Below, in pieces: positions 12,044 to 21,316 of a DNA stretch of 64,000 nucleotides; positions within the stretch are counted from its first letter, which is position 1; each line of letters begins with the position of its first letter. Source of the DNA: Burkholderiales bacterium (GTDB lineage: Bacteria > Pseudomonadota > Gammaproteobacteria > Burkholderiales > SG8-39); the NCBI GenBank assembly GCA_035499735.1, contig DATJYC010000043.1:15182-79181 (forward strand), read 5' to 3'. Under the pieces are notes generated by a model. The model was given only the letters and a program-made list of their open reading frames with translations, was not told where the DNA came from and made no database searches. Both the position numbers and the translations under genes were made by a program.

Positions 12044-13195
12044 ATGGATTTCGCCTTCACCGAAGAGCAGCGCATGATGCGCGAGTCCGTTCGCAAGCTC
12101 ATGGACCGCATCGCGACGCCCGAGTACGTGCGGCGCCTGGACCGCGAGCAGGCCTACCCCGAGGAGCTGTACTCGGCCTGGGTCGACCTGGGGCTGCTGC
12201 GCGTGCCCTTCGAGGAGAAGTACGGGGGCCTCGGCGGCAGCGTCATCGACCTGATGATCGTCGCCGAGGAGATCTCGAGAAAGAGCGCCGACTTCTTCAT
12301 GGCCTACGCGGGCAGCGTGTTCTGCGCGCTCAACGTCGCCCGCAAGGGCTCGGAGGAGCAGAAGCGCCGCTGGCTTCCCAGGGTCCTGTCGGGCGAGATC
12401 AAGATGTCGATCTCGATGTCCGAGCCCGAGGCCGGCTCGGACGTCGGCGCGATGAAGACGGGCGCGCGCCGCGAAGGCGCCGACTGGGTCATCAGCGGGC
12501 AGAAGCTCTGGGCGACGGGCGCGGGCGCCCGCGGCAACGTCATCAACGTCTACGTGCGCACCGACCCGCAGGCGAACATCCGCCAGGGCATGTCGCTCTT
12601 CCTCGTCGACAACGACGCGAAGGGCCTCACGCTGCGGAAGCTCGACATGCTCGGCCGCCGCTGCACCGGCACCTACGAAGTCTTCTTCGACGGCGTGCGG
12701 GTTCCGGCAGATCGCCTCGTCGGAGGCGAGAACAGGGGCTGGGACTGCATTCTCGCGGGGCTGCAGGCCGAGCGCATCACCTCCGCCGCCGGCAATGTCG
12801 GGGCCGCGCAGGCCTGCCTCGACCTCGCCGTCGAGTACTCGAAGGAGCGCAGGCAGTTCGGGCGCGCCATCGGAACCAACCAGGCGATCGCCCACCTGCT
12901 CGCCGACATGGCGGCGGAGATCGAGGCCGCGCGCGCGCTCACCTGGCGCGCGGCGTGGATGGCCGCGACCGGGCAGGACGCGCTGCGCGAGATCTCGATG
13001 GCGAAGCTCTTTTCCTCCGAGGCCTACGTGAAGTGCGCCAACCTCGGCATGCAGGTCTTCGGCGGCTACGGCTACAGCATGGAGTACGACATGCAGCGCC
13101 ACTACCGCGACGCGCGGGCGGCGACGATCGCCGCGGGCACGTCGCAGATGCAGCGGAACATCATCGCGGGCCTGATGGGCCTGAAGGTCGGCTAG
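12044..13195 (+). CDS. Acyl-CoA dehydrogenase
   Basis: MSEPEAGSD, GQKLWAT, RRQFGRAI.NQAI, MQVFGGYGY and TIAAGTSQMQR. Confidence 0.93.
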   Translation: MDFAFTEEQRMMRESVRKLMDRIATPEYVRRLDREQAYPEELYSAWVDLGLLRVPFEEKYGGLGGSVIDLMIVAEEISRKSADFFMAYAGSVFCALNVARKGSEEQKRRWLPRVLSGEIKMSISMSEPEAGSDVGAMKTGARREGADWVISGQKLWATGAGARGNVINVYVRTDPQANIRQGMSLFLVDNDAKGLTLRKLDMLGRRCTGTYEVFFDGVRVPADRLVGGENRGWDCILAGLQAERITSAAGNVGAAQACLDLAVEYSKERRQFGRAIGTNQAIAHLLADMAAEIEAARALTWRAAWMAATGQDALREISMAKLFSSEAYVKCANLGMQVFGGYGYSMEYDMQRHYRDARAATIAAGTSQMQRNIIAGLMGLKVG

Positions 13196-13734
13196 AAGTT
13201 CACCATCAGGCCGACGTAGCCGCCCCGGTCGATATAAGGCTGCGAGCCGTCCTCCAGCTCGGCGCGCGTCCAGCGGACTCCGACGTACGCGAAGCTGTTG
13301 CGGAACACCTCGACCTCGGCGCGCAGCCCCGTGTCGTAGAAGTTCTTGCCGTCGATGAAGGTCACGACCTTGGGCGCGTAGAAAGCGTAGCCGCCGAAGC
13401 CGAAATTGCCGTTATTCGGGAACCAGCGCAGCTGGCCGCCGAGCGCCAGCGCCGCGACGTCGGAGCCGGCGACGTGGATGGCGTAGACCTTTCCCCCGAG
13501 GCCGCCGGCGACGCGCGACTTGCCGGCGTTGCCCTCGCCGGCCGCGAGCAGGCCGATGTTGAAGAGGTAGTTCTTGTCGTCCCGGTTGTACATTCCGCCG
13601 AAGGTCCAGTCGGCGGCGCCGAAGGGATTGTCGTACTTCGCCTCGATGGTGTCGTTCGACAGATTGATGTCCAGCGTTCCCGCCGTTGCGGTGACATTCG
13701 CCAGCGCGAGCACGGCGAACACGATCCAACGCAT
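13192..13734 (-). CDS. YfaZ-like small outer-membrane beta-barrel protein
   Basis: Signal peptide, LDINLSND start of the mature chain, alternating beta-strands, YAPKVVTF and terminal Phe. Confidence 0.72.
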   Translation of the reverse strand: MRWIVFAVLALANVTATAGTLDINLSNDTIEAKYDNPFGAADWTFGGMYNRDDKNYLFNIGLLAAGEGNAGKSRVAGGLGGKVYAIHVAGSDVAALALGGQLRWFPNNGNFGFGGYAFYAPKVVTFIDGKNFYDTGLRAEVEVFRNSFAYVGVRWTRAELEDGSQPYIDRGGYVGLMVNF

Positions 13735-13804
13735 GTTGCTCCTCCGAATCAAGTTGGCTCCCCTGCAAGAGACGGGCGATTATCCCACGGGACGGCGGGC
13801 AGTT

Positions 13805-15949
13805 TCAGAAATCCCAGCGGTATCCCGCGGAAAAGAAGTAACGATGTGTAACCTCCTGGAGGAAGGCGCTGCTCGTGTTCGTGTTCTCGATGCCGGCCTC
13901 GAGCTCCAGGGTGATGCTGTTGCGCCAGCGCCAGCTCGCGCGGCCCACCGGCGAGACGCGCTGGAGGGTGCTGCCGTCGTCGTTCTTCTGCCCGTACCAG
14001 AGCACCGCGCCGTCGAAGGTCCAGCTCGCGCCCACGGGGAAGCGGCTCGTGAGCTGGCCCGCCAGCCCGTGGTACGTGTCCGCGGTCACGCCGCTCACCG
14101 AGACGACGGTGACGTCGCGCGTCGCGAACACGCCCGTGCCGATCGCCTGGCTGGTGAGCGTCTTGATGTAGCCGCTGCCGGGCGTCGCGGGATAGTTGGG
14201 AGTTGCGTTCGTGTGGGAAATGCGCGTCACCTGGGCATTGAGGCCGAGCTGCCAGACGGAGGTCACCGGGTGCGTAAAGCCTCCGTATGCGATCGCCGAT
14301 TGCGCAGTCACATCCCGAGCCTGCTGACGCAGCTCGTCTTCGGTATAGATCGTGAGCAACTGGCGGATCGACGTCGTGGGCGCGCCGATGATCGCGCTCG
14401 TGGTCTGCAGCGACGGGGTCATGCGGTAGTCGAGCAGCATATTGAACGAGGTCTTCCACGGCGCGATCCAGTTCCCCTGCGCGGTCGCGATGTTGAGGTG
14501 GCGGAACAGCGTGTCGTAGTCGACCACCGACGAGAAGTACCCCTGAGGCGTGAAGTAGCGCGCCTCCGCGCCGACCGCGTCGCGGTCGGCGATGCCGTCC
14601 ACGGTCTGGCGGAACACGTAGACGTTCCCGCTCCAGCGCTGGTTGAAGGGCCCCAGCTCGGCGCTCGCCCCGTAGAAGCGCTGCACCGAATCGATGGTGA
14701 AGCCCGGCACGACCGGCTCGCCGGCGGCCAGGTTGAGCCGCGCGCTTGAGGTGAAGCCGTACCCGAGCAGAGCGCCGTCGAAGCGGCCGGGGAGGCCCGC
14801 GCTGTTGCCGGGCTGCCGTCCCAGGCGCGCGGAGGCGCTGGCGGGCTTGTACTTGTAGTCGTAGTAGGCCTGGTCCAGGCGGTTGATGCTTTCCTGTCCG
14901 GCGATGAAGTTCCGCGTGTTGACGTCCCGGAACACGATGCGGTTTTCGTGCGCGTCGTTCATAAAGCGCGCATTGAGATCGGCGCTGGTGATGAGCGCCG
15001 ACTGGTCGACGACCGAGAGCGTGGTCCGGTCGAGGGCGTTGGGCCCGAGCGGCTGGGAGTCGATCTTGCTGTTCCCGTGATAGTAGAACTGCGACAGGCC
15101 TCCGCTGACGAACGAGCGCCAGCCCTGCTGGGGCTCGGTGGGCGGGCGCAGGACCTCCGCCTGCGGCGCGGCGGCGAGGCTCGCAAGCCGCTGGCGCACG
15201 CGCACCGAGTCCTCGCCTTCCGGATATTTCTTCAGGTAGTTCTCGTACTCGGTCCTCGCGCGGGCGGTGTCTCCGCGGCGCTCGTAGGAAAGAGCGAGAA
15301 ACTCCTGCGCGTCGCGCGTCAAGGCGTTCTGGGGCAGCGCGAGCAGCTGCGTGAACGCGCGGATCGCAGCGGCGTAGTCCTCGCGCACGATCGCGCCGCG
15401 GCCATCGGCCATCAGCGCCTCGGGTGAGCCGGCGGGCGCGGGAGCCGCGGGCGGGGCGGCCGGCTGCGATGGCTCGGCCTGAGCCGACGGAGCGGGCGCC
15501 GGAGGCGTCGCCGCGGGCGCCGGAACCGCCGCGGGGGGCGCCGCCGGGCGCGGAAGCAACGCCGCCGCGGGCGGAGCGTCGGCCTTGGCCCGCGAAGTCT
15601 TCTCGAGGTTGTCGCGCTCCTGCGGGTGGACCTGGACGACGCGCGCCTCGCGAAAGCTCGCGGCGAGCTGCCGCCTCGCGCTCTCGGCGTCCCGCTGCGT
15701 GCCGAAGAAGCCCATGCACAGCTGGTAGCTCACGTTGCTTCCCGACCTCAGCACCCGCCAGTAGAGCGTGTTCCTGCGCAACGAGGCCGGGATCGGAGTG
15801 CTCGGGCGGTCCGCGACGTTCTTCACCGTCGCCAGCGCGACCACGTAGAGATCGGGCGCCGGAGCTTGGGCGCGGGCTTCCTGCGCAAGCAACGCGAGCG
15901 CGGCCAGCGCGGCGACCGCCAGGCCTCCCCTTAGGCCGGTTCTTGTCAT
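13805..15949 (-). CDS. Outer-membrane beta-barrel with N-terminal SPOR-like domain, Pro/Ala linker and TPRs (putative porin of a porin-cytochrome conduit)
   Basis: Signal peptide; SPOR-like YQLCMGFFGTQRDAESARRQL; TPRs (REDYAAAIRAF, YENYLKKYPEG); about 450 aa of amphipathic strands ending AGYRWDF. ATGA-coupled to the upstream gene. Confidence 0.8.
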   Translation of the reverse strand: MTRTGLRGGLAVAALAALALLAQEARAQAPAPDLYVVALATVKNVADRPSTPIPASLRRNTLYWRVLRSGSNVSYQLCMGFFGTQRDAESARRQLAASFREARVVQVHPQERDNLEKTSRAKADAPPAAALLPRPAAPPAAVPAPAATPPAPAPSAQAEPSQPAAPPAAPAPAGSPEALMADGRGAIVREDYAAAIRAFTQLLALPQNALTRDAQEFLALSYERRGDTARARTEYENYLKKYPEGEDSVRVRQRLASLAAAPQAEVLRPPTEPQQGWRSFVSGGLSQFYYHGNSKIDSQPLGPNALDRTTLSVVDQSALITSADLNARFMNDAHENRIVFRDVNTRNFIAGQESINRLDQAYYDYKYKPASASARLGRQPGNSAGLPGRFDGALLGYGFTSSARLNLAAGEPVVPGFTIDSVQRFYGASAELGPFNQRWSGNVYVFRQTVDGIADRDAVGAEARYFTPQGYFSSVVDYDTLFRHLNIATAQGNWIAPWKTSFNMLLDYRMTPSLQTTSAIIGAPTTSIRQLLTIYTEDELRQQARDVTAQSAIAYGGFTHPVTSVWQLGLNAQVTRISHTNATPNYPATPGSGYIKTLTSQAIGTGVFATRDVTVVSVSGVTADTYHGLAGQLTSRFPVGASWTFDGAVLWYGQKNDDGSTLQRVSPVGRASWRWRNSITLELEAGIENTNTSSAFLQEVTHRYFFSAGYRWDF

Positions 15950-16413
15950 TCTTTGTTGTCGGTGCTCGGGGTGCGCTTGTTTTCGTCGGGTGCAATCGGG
16001 AAATCGAGCAGCAGGCTGCGGCGGTCTTCGCCGAGGCGCACGTGGCTGCGGACCGGGCGCTCGTACTGGATCAGGATGCAGACCGGGTTCGGCACGGGCT
16101 CGCACCTCGGGTCGAGGGAGACCCTCACCGTGAAAGGAGGAATGGCGCCGTCTCCCCGGAAATACTTCACCTCGTCGGGAAACGGCGGCTCGCCCGGCAA
16201 AAGCGGGGCGAGCGCCTCGAGCTGCACGTTCACCAGCTCGCCGTTCTTCGACGCGTAGTCGCGGATGTAATGGACAGGGCCGGTGAGCCGCACCCTGACT
16301 CGCGGCACCGCGTCGCCTCTCTCAACGGCGATCTCGTCGATGACCGCGGCGAGCACGGGCGGAGAGGCCAGCGCCGCCCAAGCCAGAAGCGCTACGCATG
16401 AGATGCAACGCAT
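15946..16413 (-). CDS. Small secreted accessory protein, possibly AMIN-like
   Basis: Signal peptide, beta-rich IDEIAVERG...VRVRLTGPVHY...RSLLLDF, one Cys pair. Lies within the cytochrome-porin operon. Confidence 0.62.
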   Translation of the reverse strand: MRCISCVALLAWAALASPPVLAAVIDEIAVERGDAVPRVRVRLTGPVHYIRDYASKNGELVNVQLEALAPLLPGEPPFPDEVKYFRGDGAIPPFTVRVSLDPRCEPVPNPVCILIQYERPVRSHVRLGEDRRSLLLDFPIAPDENKRTPSTDNKE

Positions 16414-16420
16414 GCGGCTT

Positions 16421-17248
16421 TCAGCTCGTCCAGCGCGTGTAGGTGGAGCCCTGATTGCCCAGCGGCCTGTGGCAGCCCGAGAACGAGCAGTCGGGTCCGG
16501 TGCCGTCATGGTTGAGCGTGTTCTTCTGCATGCTTCCCAGATAAGGCGAGTTCCTCAAATGGCATGTGCTGCACTGGCCAGAGCCGTTCCCGAGACTGCT
16601 GTTGTGGTTCATCCGCTCCGCGGTGAAGGTCGTCGTGCTGGTGTGGCAGGCGTCGCAGCCCAGGCTCGCACCGTTGAGCAGCGCGGTCTTGTAGGGAATG
16701 TGGTTGGAGGGCATGGCGAGGCCAGGTCCCCCAGGGGTGTGACAGGTCTCGCAGCTTCCCGCAGCGACACCGTTGTGGTTGAACCCGGCCGGCACCCACG
16801 CCGCTGTGCGATGGCAGCTGTCGCAGGACGCAGTAGTTACCAAGTGGTTCGCCGGCTTCCCGGGCGCGAAGAAGCCGGTGTGGCAGGTCGTGCACGTCCC
16901 CGGCGCGACTGTCGCGTGGTTGTAGCGCGCGCCCTGCCAGGTGGCCGCGGAGCGGTGGCAGTTGTTGCAGGCCTCGTTCGTCTGCACGTGATTGGCGGGC
17001 TTGAAGGTCGTGGCGATGCGGCTGCCCGGGCGGTGGCAGTACTCGCACTGCCTGGGCGTGCCCGCCATCTGTCCGCCGACGTGGCAGTTCTCGCAGGGCG
17101 TGACTGCGTGCACGCCGGTGAGCGGGAACGTCGTGCGCAAGTGGTCGAAGGTGCTGCGGCCGCCCTGCGCGAACGCTGCGCCCGCGTTCAGCAGCACGGC
17201 GCCGAAAGCGATCAAGCGCGCCAGCCGAATGCCGTGTCCGGAGTCCAT
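16421..17248 (-). CDS. Multiheme c-type cytochrome (8 CxxCH plus 1 CX4CH)
   Basis: CENCH, CEYCH, CNNCH, CTTCH, CDSCH, CETCH, CDACH, CSTCH and CSFSGCH; signal peptide. Confidence 0.92.
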   Translation of the reverse strand: MDSGHGIRLARLIAFGAVLLNAGAAFAQGGRSTFDHLRTTFPLTGVHAVTPCENCHVGGQMAGTPRQCEYCHRPGSRIATTFKPANHVQTNEACNNCHRSAATWQGARYNHATVAPGTCTTCHTGFFAPGKPANHLVTTASCDSCHRTAAWVPAGFNHNGVAAGSCETCHTPGGPGLAMPSNHIPYKTALLNGASLGCDACHTSTTTFTAERMNHNSSLGNGSGQCSTCHLRNSPYLGSMQKNTLNHDGTGPDCSFSGCHRPLGNQGSTYTRWTS

Positions 17249-17261
17249 GTTGTTTCTCCCC

Positions 17262-18848
17262 TCACTGGAACAGACGCCCTGCGCCTCCCGACTTGATGGT
17301 CTTGAACGTGCTCGTGACGTGGCAGCGCTCGCAGACGGGCCCGAAGCCGCCGTTGTGGATGTCCTGCTCCGCGTGGCAGTCCGCGCAGGTGCTGGCGAGT
17401 TTGAGCTTCCCCTGCACCGGGAACCGGTGGCAGGCCAGGCAGTCCAGCCCGCGGTGCTTCCCGTCGAGGACGAAAGCGGTGCGCTTGTTGTGGTCGAAAT
17501 CCCACTGCTTCCAGCTGCGCGGGTTGTGGCATTGCTCGCACGCCATCCCGAGCTTCAGCTTGTGCTTGTCGTCCTTGCGGTGGCACGAGTAGCAGTCGGT
17601 CTTGGCGTCCTTGAACTGCGGCGTCGTGTGGCAGTCCTTGCAGGCGACCTTGGCGTGCCGGCCGAGCAGCGGGAAGCGCGTGAGTCCGTGATCGATGCGG
17701 CTCTGCTTCCAGCTCGCATCGTTGTGGCACGACTCGCACTGGGCTCCGAGCTGCCCGTTGTGCTTGTCGTCCTTCCTGTGGCACGCGATGCAGGCCGTCG
17801 CGAGCTTCTCCCTGTAGACGAATCCCTTGTGGCAGCTGACACAGGTAATCTGCGCGTGCTTGCCGCGCAGCGGATAGCGCGTGACCAGGCCGTGGTCGAA
17901 GATCGTGGCCTTCCAGTCTCTCTCGACGTGGCAGCTGTCGCACTTGTCTCCGAAGCGACCCTGATGCCCCTTCTTGTCGTCGTCCTTCTTGTGACAGGCG
18001 ACGCACGTCGTGGGCGTCTTCTCCTTGTAGAGCATGCCGGTGTGGCAGGCGTCGCAGCGGACGAACTGGTGCCTGCCCTTCAGCTCGAACTTCGTATCGC
18101 GTGCATGGCTGAACCGGGTCGTCTTCCACGCCATGTCGGTGTGGCAGGTCTCGCACTTGGCGCCGAACCTGCCGCGATGCCCCTTCTTGTCGTCGTCCTT
18201 CTGGTGGCAGGAGACGCAGGCGAGCGGAGTTCCCTTGAAGTCCTGCGTCTTGTGGCAGGACTCGCAGGCGACATCCGAGTGGGCGTTCCGCAGCGGGAAC
18301 TTCGTCTTGCTGTGGTCGAAGCGCGTCTGCTTCCACGAGATCTCGGTGTGGCAGTTGACGCACTCTGGGCCGAGCTTGCCCTTGTGCTTGTCGTCCTTCT
18401 TGTGGCACGCGTTGCAATCGTGCGCTGTGTTGCGGTACTTGACCGTCGGCACGTGGCAGGAGGCGCACTCGACCTTGGTCGAGGCGTGGGCGCCCTTGAG
18501 CAGGAAGTCGGTCTGCTTGTGGTCGAAGGTCCTGGAGTTCACGGGAGCGATGTTCGCCTTTCGCCCCTTGTGGTCGGTGTGGCAGGCGCGGCAGTCCCGG
18601 TCGGGCATGCGTCCGTGGTAGCGCCGGTGCTGCGCGACGTCGGCGGCGATCTCCTTGTGGCAGTCGAGACACTGCGTGCGCTGCCCGGCCCGGTTGAAGC
18701 GCACGTGGCAGTTCTTGCACTCGCTCTCCCACTTGGCGTGCCCCTCGATGACCTGGCCCGGCATGACCGCAGTCTCCAGGCTCTGCGCGAAAGCGCCCGG
18801 GACGAGCAGCAGGAGGAGCCATCCGGTGACCTTCGCTCGTCTCGACAT
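17262..18848 (-). CDS. 21-heme periplasmic c-type cytochrome
   Basis: I counted 21 CxxCH motifs. Signal peptide MSRRAKVTGWLLLLLVPGAFA. Start placed at ATG 18848. Confidence 0.95.
   Translation of the reverse strand: MSRRAKVTGWLLLLLVPGAFAQSLETAVMPGQVIEGHAKWESECKNCHVRFNRAGQRTQCLDCHKEIAADVAQHRRYHGRMPDRDCRACHTDHKGRKANIAPVNSRTFDHKQTDFLLKGAHASTKVECASCHVPTVKYRNTAHDCNACHKKDDKHKGKLGPECVNCHTEISWKQTRFDHSKTKFPLRNAHSDVACESCHKTQDFKGTPLACVSCHQKDDDKKGHRGRFGAKCETCHTDMAWKTTRFSHARDTKFELKGRHQFVRCDACHTGMLYKEKTPTTCVACHKKDDDKKGHQGRFGDKCDSCHVERDWKATIFDHGLVTRYPLRGKHAQITCVSCHKGFVYREKLATACIACHRKDDKHNGQLGAQCESCHNDASWKQSRIDHGLTRFPLLGRHAKVACKDCHTTPQFKDAKTDCYSCHRKDDKHKLKLGMACEQCHNPRSWKQWDFDHNKRTAFVLDGKHRGLDCLACHRFPVQGKLKLASTCADCHAEQDIHNGGFGPVCERCHVTSTFKTIKSGGAGRLFQ
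17319..18527 (-). repeat. Six intragenic tandem tri-heme repeats of about 70 aa
   Basis: Each unit reads (F/I)(D/S)H-x-T-x-F-x-L-x-G-x-H...CxxCH...CxxCH...DD-x-H...CxxCH...W (one unit has N for G; the last lacks DD and W). DNA such as cccttcttgtcgtcgtccttct recurs near 17968 and 18181. Confidence 0.88.
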
Positions 18849-18853
18849 GAGCC

Positions 18854-19843
18854 TCAATACATGTGCACGTAGACCACATGGACGATCGCGCTGAATACCA
18901 GCATGAAGACGAAAGGAACGTGCAGGACGTGCCACAGGGAGAACAGGCGCTCGTAGGTGCGGAACTGGGCGACTTCCTTCAGCTCGCGCATGTAGCCCTT
19001 CAGGATCCGCCGCGCGACGCGGATGCGATGGCTGCGCTCGCCGCGAGGCCAGTTGCGCTCGCTGGCGGCGCGCGACAGGATCCGGCCGACGTCCCGCATG
19101 CTGCGCCAGTAGACGTAGCGGGTGCGCACCGTGAGCGCGAGAAACCGCCGCACGCCGAGCAGACCGAGACGGGTCTGGTCGGCGGCGTACGCTTCCAGGT
19201 CCTTGAGGCGCTGCTCCACGCTGGGCGCAAAGTGGAATTTCGACTTTAGCGACTCGCCCTGCAGGCCCAGGTGCTCCTGGCGCTCTCGCAGCGTGGCCTG
19301 GCGGCCGTAGAGGCCGTGGTGGATCTTGGTGTAGATGAAGCGCCCGATGATTCCGCTGCCCGCGACGATCAGCATGCTGTAGAAGGCGACGGCGGCGTTG
19401 AGCGAGCCGATCCTGAGCGTGGAGTGGTACAGGATCAGGACCGGCCCGGCGATCCCGAGGAACATGTGCACCTTGAACCAGTGCCGGAGCTCCCCGGCCC
19501 GCTGAAGGAAGCGCACGCGCTTGCGCAGGGGATACAGGAGCAGCAGCAGCATGAAGATCGAGCCGACGAGGCCGAGGTTGTAGCCGAGATCGGAGCCGGG
19601 GGTATACAGCTCGGCGCGGCCGGCAAGCCAGGCGCCCGCGGCGAGAACGATCGCCACGAGCCAGATCGCCGTGACCGGCAGGGGGCGGGCGTCCCCGCGA
19701 CGCTCCGACCCCGCGTGCGGGCGCGGGCCCGCCGACCGGCGCTCGACATCGTATGCGGGACTCACCGGGGACGACACAGGTCTGCTCGGACGATTGGTCG
19801 ACGCGGAAGGAGTGCCATTGTCATCTGGACGGCGCACGGCCAT
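18854..19843 (-). CDS. Inner-membrane His-rich protein, cytochrome b/ferric-reductase-like transmembrane module
   Basis: Hydrophobic helices with His residues: WFKVHMFLG...LYHST and WHVLHVPF...IVHVVYVH. First gene of the cytochrome operon. The true start is uncertain and may be downstream of 19843. Confidence 0.78.
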   Translation of the reverse strand: MAVRRPDDNGTPSASTNRPSRPVSSPVSPAYDVERRSAGPRPHAGSERRGDARPLPVTAIWLVAIVLAAGAWLAGRAELYTPGSDLGYNLGLVGSIFMLLLLLYPLRKRVRFLQRAGELRHWFKVHMFLGIAGPVLILYHSTLRIGSLNAAVAFYSMLIVAGSGIIGRFIYTKIHHGLYGRQATLRERQEHLGLQGESLKSKFHFAPSVEQRLKDLEAYAADQTRLGLLGVRRFLALTVRTRYVYWRSMRDVGRILSRAASERNWPRGERSHRIRVARRILKGYMRELKEVAQFRTYERLFSLWHVLHVPFVFMLVFSAIVHVVYVHMY

Positions 19844-20008
19844 CCATGAAAATCTTCCACCATGCCCAGAAGAATCGACGCAGTCGTGAAAAACTGCCGC
19901 GCCTCCCGTTGCCTCCAGAACGCGGGCGTAGGATACGATATATTCAAGCGGGTGTCGGTGATTTTCTCTGTCTCCGATTCACGACACACAGACGTTTCTC
20001 ATTCTCAC

Positions 20009-21316
20009 GTGCTAGCAGGCGCAAACCTCACCACGCTGCTCTTATACGGGCTGCCCTTCCTTGCGGTGCTCGCCTGGTACGTCGTGCGCCAGCGCCGCCG
20101 CGACCGCGAGGGCAGCGAGCGCCTCCAGCAGGCGATCGAGGAGGGGCTCAACGAGCCCGCGTCGCTGCACCCTGTCATCGATCCGCGCAAGTGCCTCAAC
20201 TCCAGGGCGTGCGTCGCGGCCTGCCCGGAGGACGCCATCGGCATCGTCAACGGCAAGGCGCAGCTGGTGAATGCCGCGGCGTGCATCGGCCACGGGGCCT
20301 GCATGGCCTCGTGCCCGCACGACGCGATCACCCTGGTATTCGGCACCGAGAAGCGCGGCATGGACATCCCCCTGGTCAAGCCGAACTTCGAGACCAACGT
20401 GCCCGGCCTGTTCATCGCCGGGGAGCTCGGCGGGATGGGGCTCATACGCAAGGCGGTCGAGCAGGGCCGGCAGGCGATGGAATCGATCGCGAAGCTGAAG
20501 GGCAGCGGCCTGCCGCACGACGTCGTGATCGTCGGCGCCGGCCCGGCCGGCATCTCGGCCTCGCTCGCCGCGAAGGAAAGGAACCTCAAGTTCGTGACGG
20601 TCGAGCAGGAGAGCTCGTTCGGCGGCACCGTCTATCACTACCCGCGCAACAAGGTCGTCATGACCGCGCCGGTGCAGTTGCCGATCATCGGCAAGATGAA
20701 CTTCGGGGAGGTGAGCAAGGAGAAGCTCCTCGAGTTCTGGAACGGCGTCGTCAGGCGCACGGGCATCAAGATCAATTTCTTCGAGCGCATGGAGACGCTG
20801 AAGCCGGACCGCAACGGTTTCGTCCTCAGGACCTCGAAGCAGGAGTACCGCACGCGCGCGGTCCTGCTGACCATAGGCCGCCGCGGCACGCCCCGCAAGC
20901 TCGGCGTGAAGGGCGAGGAACGGCCCAACGTGGTCTACCGCCTGATCGACCCCGAGCAGTACCGCGGCCAGCACGTGCTCGTCGTCGGCGGGGGCGACTC
21001 CGCGCTCGAGGCGGCGCTCGCCTGCGCCGACGAGGCCGGCACGAGGGTCACGCTCTCCTACCGCAGCGAGGCGTTCTCGCGCGTGAAGCAGAAGAACCGC
21101 GAGGCCGTGCAGCGCGCCGAGAGCGCCCGCAGGCTGAAGGTCGTTCTTTCCTCGAACGTCGAGCAGATCGGCGAGGGCAGCGTCACCCTCGACCAGGGCG
21201 GCAGGAAGATCGAGCTGAAGAACGACGCGGTGATCGTATGCGCGGGCGGCATCCTGCCGACCCCCTTCCTCAAGGAGATCGGCGTGCAGGTCGACACCAA
21301 GTACGGCACGGCCTAG
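20009..21316 (+). CDS. Membrane-anchored 2x[Fe-S] ferredoxin fused to a TrxR/FNR-like FAD/NADPH oxidoreductase
   Basis: N-terminal TM followed by RQRRR; CLNSRACVAACP and CIGHGACMASCP; VGAGPAG (FAD); VGGGDSA...YRSEAFSR (NADPH type). GTG 20009 is the chosen start; the ORF is open from 19862. Confidence 0.85.
   Translation: MLAGANLTTLLLYGLPFLAVLAWYVVRQRRRDREGSERLQQAIEEGLNEPASLHPVIDPRKCLNSRACVAACPEDAIGIVNGKAQLVNAAACIGHGACMASCPHDAITLVFGTEKRGMDIPLVKPNFETNVPGLFIAGELGGMGLIRKAVEQGRQAMESIAKLKGSGLPHDVVIVGAGPAGISASLAAKERNLKFVTVEQESSFGGTVYHYPRNKVVMTAPVQLPIIGKMNFGEVSKEKLLEFWNGVVRRTGIKINFFERMETLKPDRNGFVLRTSKQEYRTRAVLLTIGRRGTPRKLGVKGEERPNVVYRLIDPEQYRGQHVLVVGGGDSALEAALACADEAGTRVTLSYRSEAFSRVKQKNREAVQRAESARRLKVVLSSNVEQIGEGSVTLDQGGRKIELKNDAVIVCAGGILPTPFLKEIGVQVDTKYGTA

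Follow-up and report, generated by a model that had tools for sequence, protein, structure and literature searches.

We examined a 64,000-nucleotide stretch of DNA from a Burkholderiales bacterium (the window), in which an earlier reading of the letters (the original prediction) had proposed that positions 13805-19843 encode a complete PCC3-type conduit of porin and multihaem cytochromes in an apparent organoheterotroph. PCC3 was predicted in 2017 and is defined by a porin, two multihaem cytochromes (one termed "extracellular", the other periplasmic), and an inner-membrane protein (IMP) of ~300 amino acids (aa) with five transmembrane (TM) helices, which bears an SGXXG motif on TM4 and a WX3HX13H motif on each of TM3 and TM5 (He et al. 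2017, PMC5566968). The papers we read still call the function of PCC3 untested, in line with its earlier description as not biochemically characterised. Five co-directional open reading frames (ORFs) occupy this interval on the minus strand, and we consider with them a divergent flavoprotein gene, the region between, and a small gene downstream:

18854..19843, minus strand: PCC3 inner-membrane protein (IMP), 329 aa, with 13 His, 0 Cys and no haem motif
17262..18848, minus strand: 21-haem periplasmic cytochrome c, 528 aa from the likely ATG at 18848 (ORF 17262-18935)
16421..17248, minus strand: 9-haem second cytochrome c, 275 aa from the ATG at 17248, with 8 CXXCH and 1 CX4CH
15946..16413, minus strand: detached porin N-terminal domain (by homology), 155 aa from the likely ATG at 16413 (ORF 15946-16509)
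13805..15949, minus strand: PCC3 outer-membrane protein (barrel), 714 aa from the likely ATG at 15949 (ORF 13805-16105)
20009..21316, plus strand: membrane-anchored Fe-S flavoprotein, 435 aa, with a GTG start
19844..20008, no strand: intergenic region separating the divergent IMP operon and flavoprotein gene, a presumed shared promoter region (19778-20008 if the IMP begins at GTG 19777)
13192..13752, minus strand: small outer-membrane-type protein, 186 aa, 52 nt 3' of the barrel gene

The five genes are as tightly packed as had been described. The TGA of the IMP gene is followed by 5 nt and the ATG of the 21-haem cytochrome gene, the next two gaps are 13 and 7 nt, and the last two genes, encoding the detached domain and the outer-membrane protein, share an ATGA overlap. 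At the most plausible starts, Sec-type signal peptides begin four of the five proteins (all but the IMP), and CXXCH/CX4CH-type motifs are confined to the two cytochrome ORFs, with none in the remaining three. An alternative start for the IMP, GTG 19777, would give a protein of 307 aa, matching the length of its homologues. A terminator scan found no terminator-like site on the minus strand within the five-gene cluster, which is consistent with a single operon; no consensus sigma-70 site was found in the IMP/flavoprotein intergenic region, and the results of the promoter and terminator scans overall were not above chance.

All of the parts are homologous to those of the type cluster of Sideroxydans lithotrophicus ES-1 (CP001965.1, locus L086), which encodes an IMP of 299 aa, cytochromes with 21 and 17+1 haems, and a porin of 744 aa. 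In tblastn comparisons, the window IMP was 44% identical to its ES-1 counterpart (E=4e-69; E=9e-77 in a separate comparison), the 21-haem cytochrome was 53% identical over 522 aa (E=2e-168), the barrel protein was 33% identical to the ES-1 porin over 620 aa (E=1e-76), and the 9-haem cytochrome matched the first ~280 residues of the 17+1-haem cytochrome (38% identity, E=5e-48). The order of IMP, periplasmic cytochrome, outer cytochrome and porin is also that of ES-1 PCC3 cluster 1 (Slit_0867-0870), which likewise has the IMP motifs and an adjoining Fe-S flavoprotein gene. We collected 80 related loci from Burkholderiales, Acidiferrobacterales, Thiobacillus, Gallionellaceae and Nitrospirota, and counted gene order only in those extending far enough downstream. 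Since the same order recurs across most of these loci, the arrangement is not a matter of chance; the barrel gene lies 3' of the cytochromes in all sufficiently long loci except L039.

Thus, the predicted resemblance to PCC3 held on four points: the window has an IMP with the motifs, a high-haem periplasmic cytochrome beside it, a homologous barrel and the expected gene order. The 21 haems of the periplasmic cytochrome are within published values (21, 24 or 27 in Gallionellaceae; Hoover et al.). The second cytochromes of PCC3 are rich in small residues, are predicted to be extracellular, and carry 10-35 haems in Gallionellaceae and up to 85 elsewhere; that of the window is homologous and rich in Thr, Gly, Ala and Ser, yet has only 9 haems, below the Gallionellaceae range. 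On the basis of these homologies, we consider it established that the cluster is an ordinary member of PCC3.

The window cluster differs from that of ES-1 in several respects. Its second cytochrome has 9 haems rather than 17+1; a porin domain that is fused in ES-1 is encoded by a separate gene, and the porin has an extra N-terminal alpha/beta domain; the flavoprotein gene is divergent from the IMP gene, rather than convergent behind the porin gene; and the host is a heterotroph lacking RuBisCO, rather than a lithoautotrophic iron oxidiser. The split porin domain, the 9-haem cytochrome reduced to its core, the extra porin N-terminal domain and the small outer-membrane-type protein are common to a group of related metagenome-assembled genomes (MAGs).

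Like MtrCAB, MtoAB and PioAB, the cluster combines a multihaem cytochrome facing the periplasm with a large outer-membrane barrel, a pairing that would let electrons pass through the outer membrane. The claim that it is nevertheless distinct from MtrAB/MtoAB was upheld: the window barrel had no Pfam match to MtrB_PioB (PF11854) at E<=10, whereas the real MtrB of the same genome matched at E=7e-163. The MtrB barrel has 26 strands, compared to 22 in the model of the window barrel. The cytochromes of the window, with 21 and 9 haems of c7/c3 type, are polymers of c7 repeats rather than MtrA-type decahaems; a dedicated IMP and flavoprotein stand where Mtr systems have the quinol dehydrogenase CymA; and, unlike Mtr, the cluster has no lipoprotein surface cytochrome.

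The IMP was modelled as a single chain with AlphaFold2 (AF2), as was the outer-membrane protein. Consistent with the His-rich inner-membrane protein originally proposed, the IMP model (predicted local distance difference test score, pLDDT, 80) has five TM helices, with a long helical, K/R-rich domain of ~125 residues (179-303) between TM4 and TM5; this domain and the N-terminus are assigned to the cytoplasm by a positive-inside tally of Lys and Arg. The motifs are W122-x3-H126-x13-H140 on TM3, S163-G-x-x-G167 on TM4, and W304-x3-H308-x13-H322 on TM5, and in an alignment of 55 IMP sequences the four His, the two Trp, and S163, G164 and G167 of SGxxG were invariant. From these residues, the IMP is predicted to carry two bis-His b haems, stacked across the membrane. 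The IMP family, for which a search gave 3330 database clusters, has no Pfam or NCBIfam entry, the only match being a sub-threshold one to DUF4405 (E=0.044); a Foldseek search of the model against the PDB returned nothing at E<1, with cytochrome b561 at E=3.

A resemblance of the PCC3 IMP motifs to those of NADPH oxidase and ferric reductase has been noted earlier (He et al. 2017, PMC5566968). In the likeness to NOX and FRE/FRO that we propose, electrons would pass from NAD(P)H to flavin, to two bis-His b haems held by His residues 13 apart on two TM helices, and on to an acceptor on the outer side; MsrQ-Fre provides the further likeness of a dehydrogenase on a separate polypeptide. The differences from NOX/FRE are that the IMP has five TM helices instead of six, that Fe-S clusters lie in between, and that the flavin domain resembles thioredoxin reductase (TrxR) and YpdA rather than ferredoxin-NADP reductase (FNR). 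The resemblance therefore appears to be one of mechanism and motif: beyond the two HX13H motifs, Pfam and Foldseek gave nothing to place the IMP in the ferric reductase/NOX/MsrQ superfamily (PF01794). PCC4 systems also have a five-TM IMP with WX3HX13H and SGXXG motifs, and in PCC4 subgroup II the IMP gene has that of an Fe-S protein upstream of it (He et al. 2017). PCC4 differs in that it has three periplasmic cytochromes but lacks an outer one, and in that its IMPs share no sequence homology with those of PCC3, which the window cluster matches directly.

The UniRef cluster of the ES-1 PCC3 IMP (P0129) bears the name "FAD-dependent pyridine...", for which the protein itself has no matching domain; the name could stem from a cluster member that is fused or mis-merged. 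We found no IMP-flavoprotein fusion, which the name had brought to mind, among the three over-long IMP ORFs checked (L080, L074 and L040), as these had no extra Pfam domain.

The two cytochromes carry the numbers of haem motifs that had been counted. The 21-haem cytochrome has a signal peptide that ends AFA-QS, followed by seven tandem units of ~70 aa with three CXXCH motifs each (c7-type trihaem; ~24 residues per haem). Pfam Cytochrome_C7 matched it in five stretches (5.6e-28), and a sequence search found no close solved structure, the top PDB match being a cytochrome c3 (E=0.003). Among loci uncut by a contig end, its homologues have 18, 21, 24 or 27 haems, always a multiple of three (18 only in L035). 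The protein thus resembles the c7 polymers of Geobacter (the dodecahaem "nanowire" GSU1996; TIGR04257), in which tandem trihaem c7 domains form a linear haem wire, with the differences that it has seven modules rather than four and that its gene is set in a porin/IMP operon.

The 9-haem cytochrome has a Sec signal peptide ending AFA-QG, is rich in Thr, Gly, Ala, Ser and Asn, and has short NH-x(7-9)-CxxCH units (~27 residues per haem), such that the two cytochromes together carry 30 haems at 24-27 residues per haem. NCBIfam TIGR04257 matched it weakly. Among the large cytochrome ORFs (14-59 haems) that it matched, the best match was to the N-terminal ~250 residues in 26 of 29, and two of the other three (L028 and L036) are periplasmic-type 24-haem cytochromes. 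As judged from these alignments, the 9-haem cytochrome is the conserved N-terminal core of the longer PCC3 outer cytochromes, without their variable extension.

The large beta-barrel of the original prediction is also present. In the AF2 model of the outer-membrane protein (mean pLDDT 87.7), the signal peptide is followed by an alpha/beta domain (residues 34-124), a disordered Pro/Ala linker (128-166), TPR helices (176-260), which have weak TPR matches in Pfam, and a Phe-terminated barrel of 22 strands (278-713). Foldseek returned only generic barrels for it (TM-score <=0.31), with MtrB outside the top 50. The standard barrel formula puts the C-alpha diameter at ~40 Å for 22 strands, compared to ~47 Å for 26. 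TonB-dependent receptors are 22-stranded barrels that enclose a plug domain. The original prediction had named a barrel that cannot hold a cytochrome as an outcome that would refute it; neither the ~40 Å estimate nor the analogy to these plug-holding receptors points to that outcome.

The remaining component, which had been described as a secreted accessory protein, is secreted as predicted from its signal peptide, but it does not appear to be a separate accessory. In a profile-profile comparison it matched the N-terminal domain of fused Gallionellaceae porins (99.7% probability, E=2.8e-27, 117 columns), and its tblastn matches fell within the porin ORFs of Sideroxydans and ES-1. By this homology, it is the porin's own N-terminal periplasmic domain, split into a separate gene. 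The domain is encoded separately here and in related Burkholderiales and Acidiferrobacterales MAGs, and is fused to the porin in Gallionellaceae and ES-1. As read from its signal peptide and the ATGA overlap, the detached domain is secreted and its gene translationally coupled to that of the barrel. It had no Pfam family at E<=10, and no solved relative by sequence in a profile search against the PDB. A by-eye suspicion that this domain and the porin N-terminal domain were of AMIN or SPOR type was dropped, as Pfam gave it no support at E<=10.

The original prediction had named five genes for the conduit. These stand, and on the evidence given below the system has a sixth gene, that of the Fe-S flavoprotein, which lies beyond the interval it considered. 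The flavoprotein begins with a single TM helix followed by RQRRR, which would place its body in the cytoplasm. Its ferredoxin-like domain has two non-canonical motifs, CxxSxxCxxxCP and CxxHxxCxxxCP, in which the second Cys is replaced (by Ser or Ala in the first, by His in the second), a feature conserved in 46 of 47 homologues, including that of ES-1. Pfam matches were to Fer4, Pyr_redox_3 (3.3e-42) and Pyr_redox_2. By sequence, the C-terminal domain has a TrxR/YpdA-like FAD/NAD(P)H fold without the redox CxxC, and among solved structures it is closest to YpdA/Bdr (7a7b, 2e-29) and to ferredoxin-NADP reductases of TrxR-like type. The Pyr_redox_3 match stops ~23 profile positions early, and a GD-type FAD motif (PGLFIAGELGG) precedes the GxGxxG; this motif order is consistent with a circular permutation.

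The flavoprotein gene is closely linked to the IMP gene. It was adjacent in 54 of the 74 loci with sufficient upstream sequence (L002 being included as adjacent), and among 151 genomes of the host's GTDB family both genes were present in 17 and neither in 133, with a partial IMP alone in one (Fisher p=1.5e-21, phylogeny not being corrected for). The 17 flavoprotein-positive genomes are exactly those with a full-length IMP; all of the orthologues matched at E<=1e-148, and the two genes were on the same contig in equal copy numbers. The flavoprotein is also the best-conserved protein of the cluster set (56-92% identity), and the gene flanking the ES-1 type cluster encodes one that is 64% identical to that of the window. 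The linkage withstands rearrangement, as the orientation of the gene varies from divergent here to convergent behind the porin gene (ES-1 and L060) to co-directional in an IMP-cytochrome-flavoprotein series (L081-L083). On the IMP tree, linkage is the majority state, with loss mainly in one Gallionellaceae subclade that has very long outer cytochromes. We found no mention of this gene in the PCC3 papers that we searched, and it is absent from the published PCC3 model; for the ES-1 neighbours Slit_0866, 0871, 1445 and 1450 we found no paper, and they are not listed in the supplement of Zhou et al. We conclude that the membership of the Fe-S flavoprotein in PCC3 as a sixth gene, also at the ES-1 type cluster, is supported.

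In two loci from the same GTDB family (L082:5253-9559 and L083:4195-8295), genes for the IMP, a cytochrome of 24 haems and the flavoprotein run co-directionally, and no PCC3 porin lies within 19 kb. The neighbouring genes encode two-component regulators, a tetrahaem cytochrome and a protein with NHL repeats. This arrangement suggests that the trio of IMP, cytochrome and flavoprotein is a core module with an exchangeable porin end.

Other neighbours were noted in passing. In the Sideroxydans subclade lacking the flavoprotein neighbour, an HD-domain gene precedes the IMP gene on the same strand, with an EamA-type transporter gene farther upstream (L034:8657-9577, L050:8296-9222 and similar loci). 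In ES-1 (L086:16511-20900), a Na+/H+ exchanger gene and rnf genes (RnfH, Rnf-Nqr and an FMN_bind protein) come after the PCC3-linked flavoprotein gene and share its strand.

The host assembly (3.74 Mb in 86 contigs, 67% GC, 96% complete) has soil MAGs labelled Burkholderiales as its nearest public relatives. A search for RuBisCO in this 96%-complete genome found none, in agreement with the suggestion of an organoheterotroph. PCC3 is patchy among the relatives of the host: 5 of 9 genomes sampled from the genus have it, as do 18 of 151 from the family. Another contig carries a complete Mtr-type cluster (C62:103797-113397), directly 3' of the cytochrome c maturation (ccm) genes, which encodes an MtrB porin (PF11854), an MtrA-like decahaem cytochrome, two MtrC/OmcA-like decahaem lipoproteins and, divergently, a NapC/NirT (CymA-like) tetrahaem cytochrome. 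Thus, this genome encodes two unrelated outer-membrane cytochrome systems, and given its MtrCAB/CymA-type cluster, extracellular electron transfer is expected of the host rather than surprising. Nor is PCC3 in an organoheterotroph new, since the system had already been described from the heterotroph Leptothrix cholodnii, and from many Alpha-, Beta- and Gammaproteobacteria that have no known link to metal redox (He et al. 2017, PMC5566968).

We read the locus, with a probability of roughly 0.55, as a six-gene PCC3-type trans-envelope conduit that is fed by NAD(P)H and carries electrons outward. Haem b binding, the contacts between the proteins, the passage of a cytochrome through the barrel, the NAD(P)H donor and the outward direction are the parts of this reading that we infer. 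Specifically, the flavoprotein would oxidise NAD(P)H on its FAD and pass the electrons singly, by way of two Fe-S clusters, to the IMP at its cytoplasmic face; the IMP would then move them across the inner membrane from a haem b at H126/H308, on the cytoplasmic side, to a haem b at H140/H322, on the periplasmic side. The 21-haem cytochrome, with its seven c7-type trihaem modules in line, would bridge the periplasm, and the 9-haem cytochrome, in or at the 22-strand barrel, would deliver electrons to the cell surface, where the acceptors may be soluble or closely apposed (humic quinones, Mn(IV), and Fe(III) in chelated or mineral form). The TPR segment may act as a scaffold in the periplasm, as may the alpha/beta domain at the N-terminus and the detached domain of the porin. 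Since a path of this kind would go around the quinone pool, and would spend rather than build membrane potential, it would serve as an electron outlet or as a reductase for extracellular substrates, working beside the quinol-linked MtrCAB of the same genome.

To flow inward from Fe(II) to NAD(P)+, electrons would have to climb in redox potential and move against the membrane potential. These grounds favour the outward direction, as do the non-autotrophic host and expression data from ES-1, whose two PCC3 clusters are both down-regulated on Fe(II) (Zhou et al. 2022, PMC8788666).

We also put forward, tentatively and at somewhat less than even odds, a more general proposal for PCC3: that it is a quinone-independent, split NOX/FRE-like trans-envelope reductase, in which a dedicated membrane-anchored NAD(P)H Fe-S flavoprotein feeds a new family of dihaem-b membrane proteins, and these in turn load a haem wire across the periplasm and a porin-held cytochrome, rather than a four-gene system for quinone-linked iron oxidation. 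The window would then be a minimal form, in which the outer cytochrome is cut to the core that engages the porin and the porin's docking domain is split off.

Several points weigh against an NAD(P)H-fed outlet. The IMP model has no significant structural match to ferric reductase, NOX, MsrQ or cytochrome b561, and no Pfam match either; with no fold or Pfam relation found, haem b binding is argued from motifs only. TrxR-type FNRs can run in either direction. No experiment has been reported on any PCC3 component. The remaining points against it (the loci that lack an adjacent flavoprotein, the enrichment of PCC3 in iron oxidisers, the trios without a porin, and the absence of a lipobox from the second cytochrome) are taken up with the alternatives that they favour.

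In the published PCC3 model, the IMP is cytochrome-b-like and quinone-active, the system serves mainly for uptake of electrons from extracellular Fe(II) or minerals, (He et al. 2017), and the flavoprotein would be a neighbour with a different role. We consider this model unlikely, although it is the likeliest of the three alternatives. It was derived from the same IMP motifs, and it draws support from the 20 of 74 loci, about a quarter, in which an adjacent flavoprotein gene is missing; in contrast, the linkage and co-occurrence of the flavoprotein are otherwise near-perfect and extend to the type cluster. PCC3 is also frequent in Gallionellaceae iron oxidisers, with 26 complete clusters among 87 iron-oxidiser genomes and presence in 59% of Sideroxydans (Hoover et al.), and this enrichment fits electron uptake at least equally naturally. 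The expression data are divided, as the IMP gene of PCC3_2 in Sideroxydans CL21 is reported in a published study to be up during iron oxidation, whereas the Fe(II) response of both ES-1 clusters (Zhou et al. 2022, PMC8788666) speaks against uptake. Furthermore, no quinone site was identified in the system, and the host, lacking RuBisCO, is already equipped with a CymA-like quinol dehydrogenase and MtrCAB.

The porin-less trios of L082 and L083, in which no porin was detectable within 19 kb, imply that the core function may be periplasmic. If the system were periplasmic only, the IMP, 21-haem cytochrome and flavoprotein would store or distribute electrons, as a capacitor (a role mentioned by Hoover et al.) or as a supply to periplasmic reductases, and the barrel would be an ordinary channel, or a device for export or assembly of the second cytochrome. 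Such a system would agree with the second cytochrome, which by sequence inspection has a Sec signal alone and no lipobox, and with a barrel unlike any solved cytochrome-sheathing porin. We regard it as improbable, however, because the barrel gene follows the cytochromes in all long-enough loci but one and is translationally coupled within the window operon, because 22 strands with TPR and docking domains are oversized for a solute porin, and because the porin and the conserved N-terminal core of the second cytochrome co-vary in their presence.

Least probable of all is an inward conduit, in which strongly reducing extracellular donors (cathodes, partner cells, Fe(0), reduced humics or sulfide minerals) would directly supply the electrons for making NAD(P)H or reduced Fe-S carriers. 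It would fit the frequency of PCC3 in lithotrophs (Hoover et al.), the ability of TrxR-type FNRs to reduce NADP+ from low-potential donors and the low potential of c7-type haems, but is opposed by the membrane potential, would answer little need in a RuBisCO-less heterotroph, and has no supporting expression data.

PCC3 is among the most widespread predicted systems for extracellular electron transfer, and its hosts include iron oxidisers, sulfur oxidisers and ordinary soil heterotrophs. The window adds independent support for the flavoprotein as a part of PCC3, rather than a new kind of system. It provides a compact reference variant, in which 30 haems go together with a split porin domain and an outer cytochrome that is core only, from a soil Burkholderiales heterotroph that has PCC3 and MtrCAB side by side. 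If the NAD(P)H-fed outlet is correct, calls of "iron oxidation potential" made from PCC3 in metagenomes would need revision; if PCC3 is a split reductase, the minimal form in the window points to the essential segments of the outer cytochrome and the porin.

Finally, the small 186-aa protein encoded next to the barrel gene has a signal peptide and a C-terminus ending ...MVNF. It matched no Pfam or NCBIfam family, and the one promoter-like site before its gene was at chance level. Homologues with 54-89% identity are encoded directly 3' of the porin gene in seven related loci (L001, L003, L004, L006, L007, L008 and L013) and elsewhere in L010, and none was found in the remaining related loci or in the ES-1 cluster. 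Thus, the small protein is possibly a lineage-specific add-on that elsewhere lies outside PCC3.

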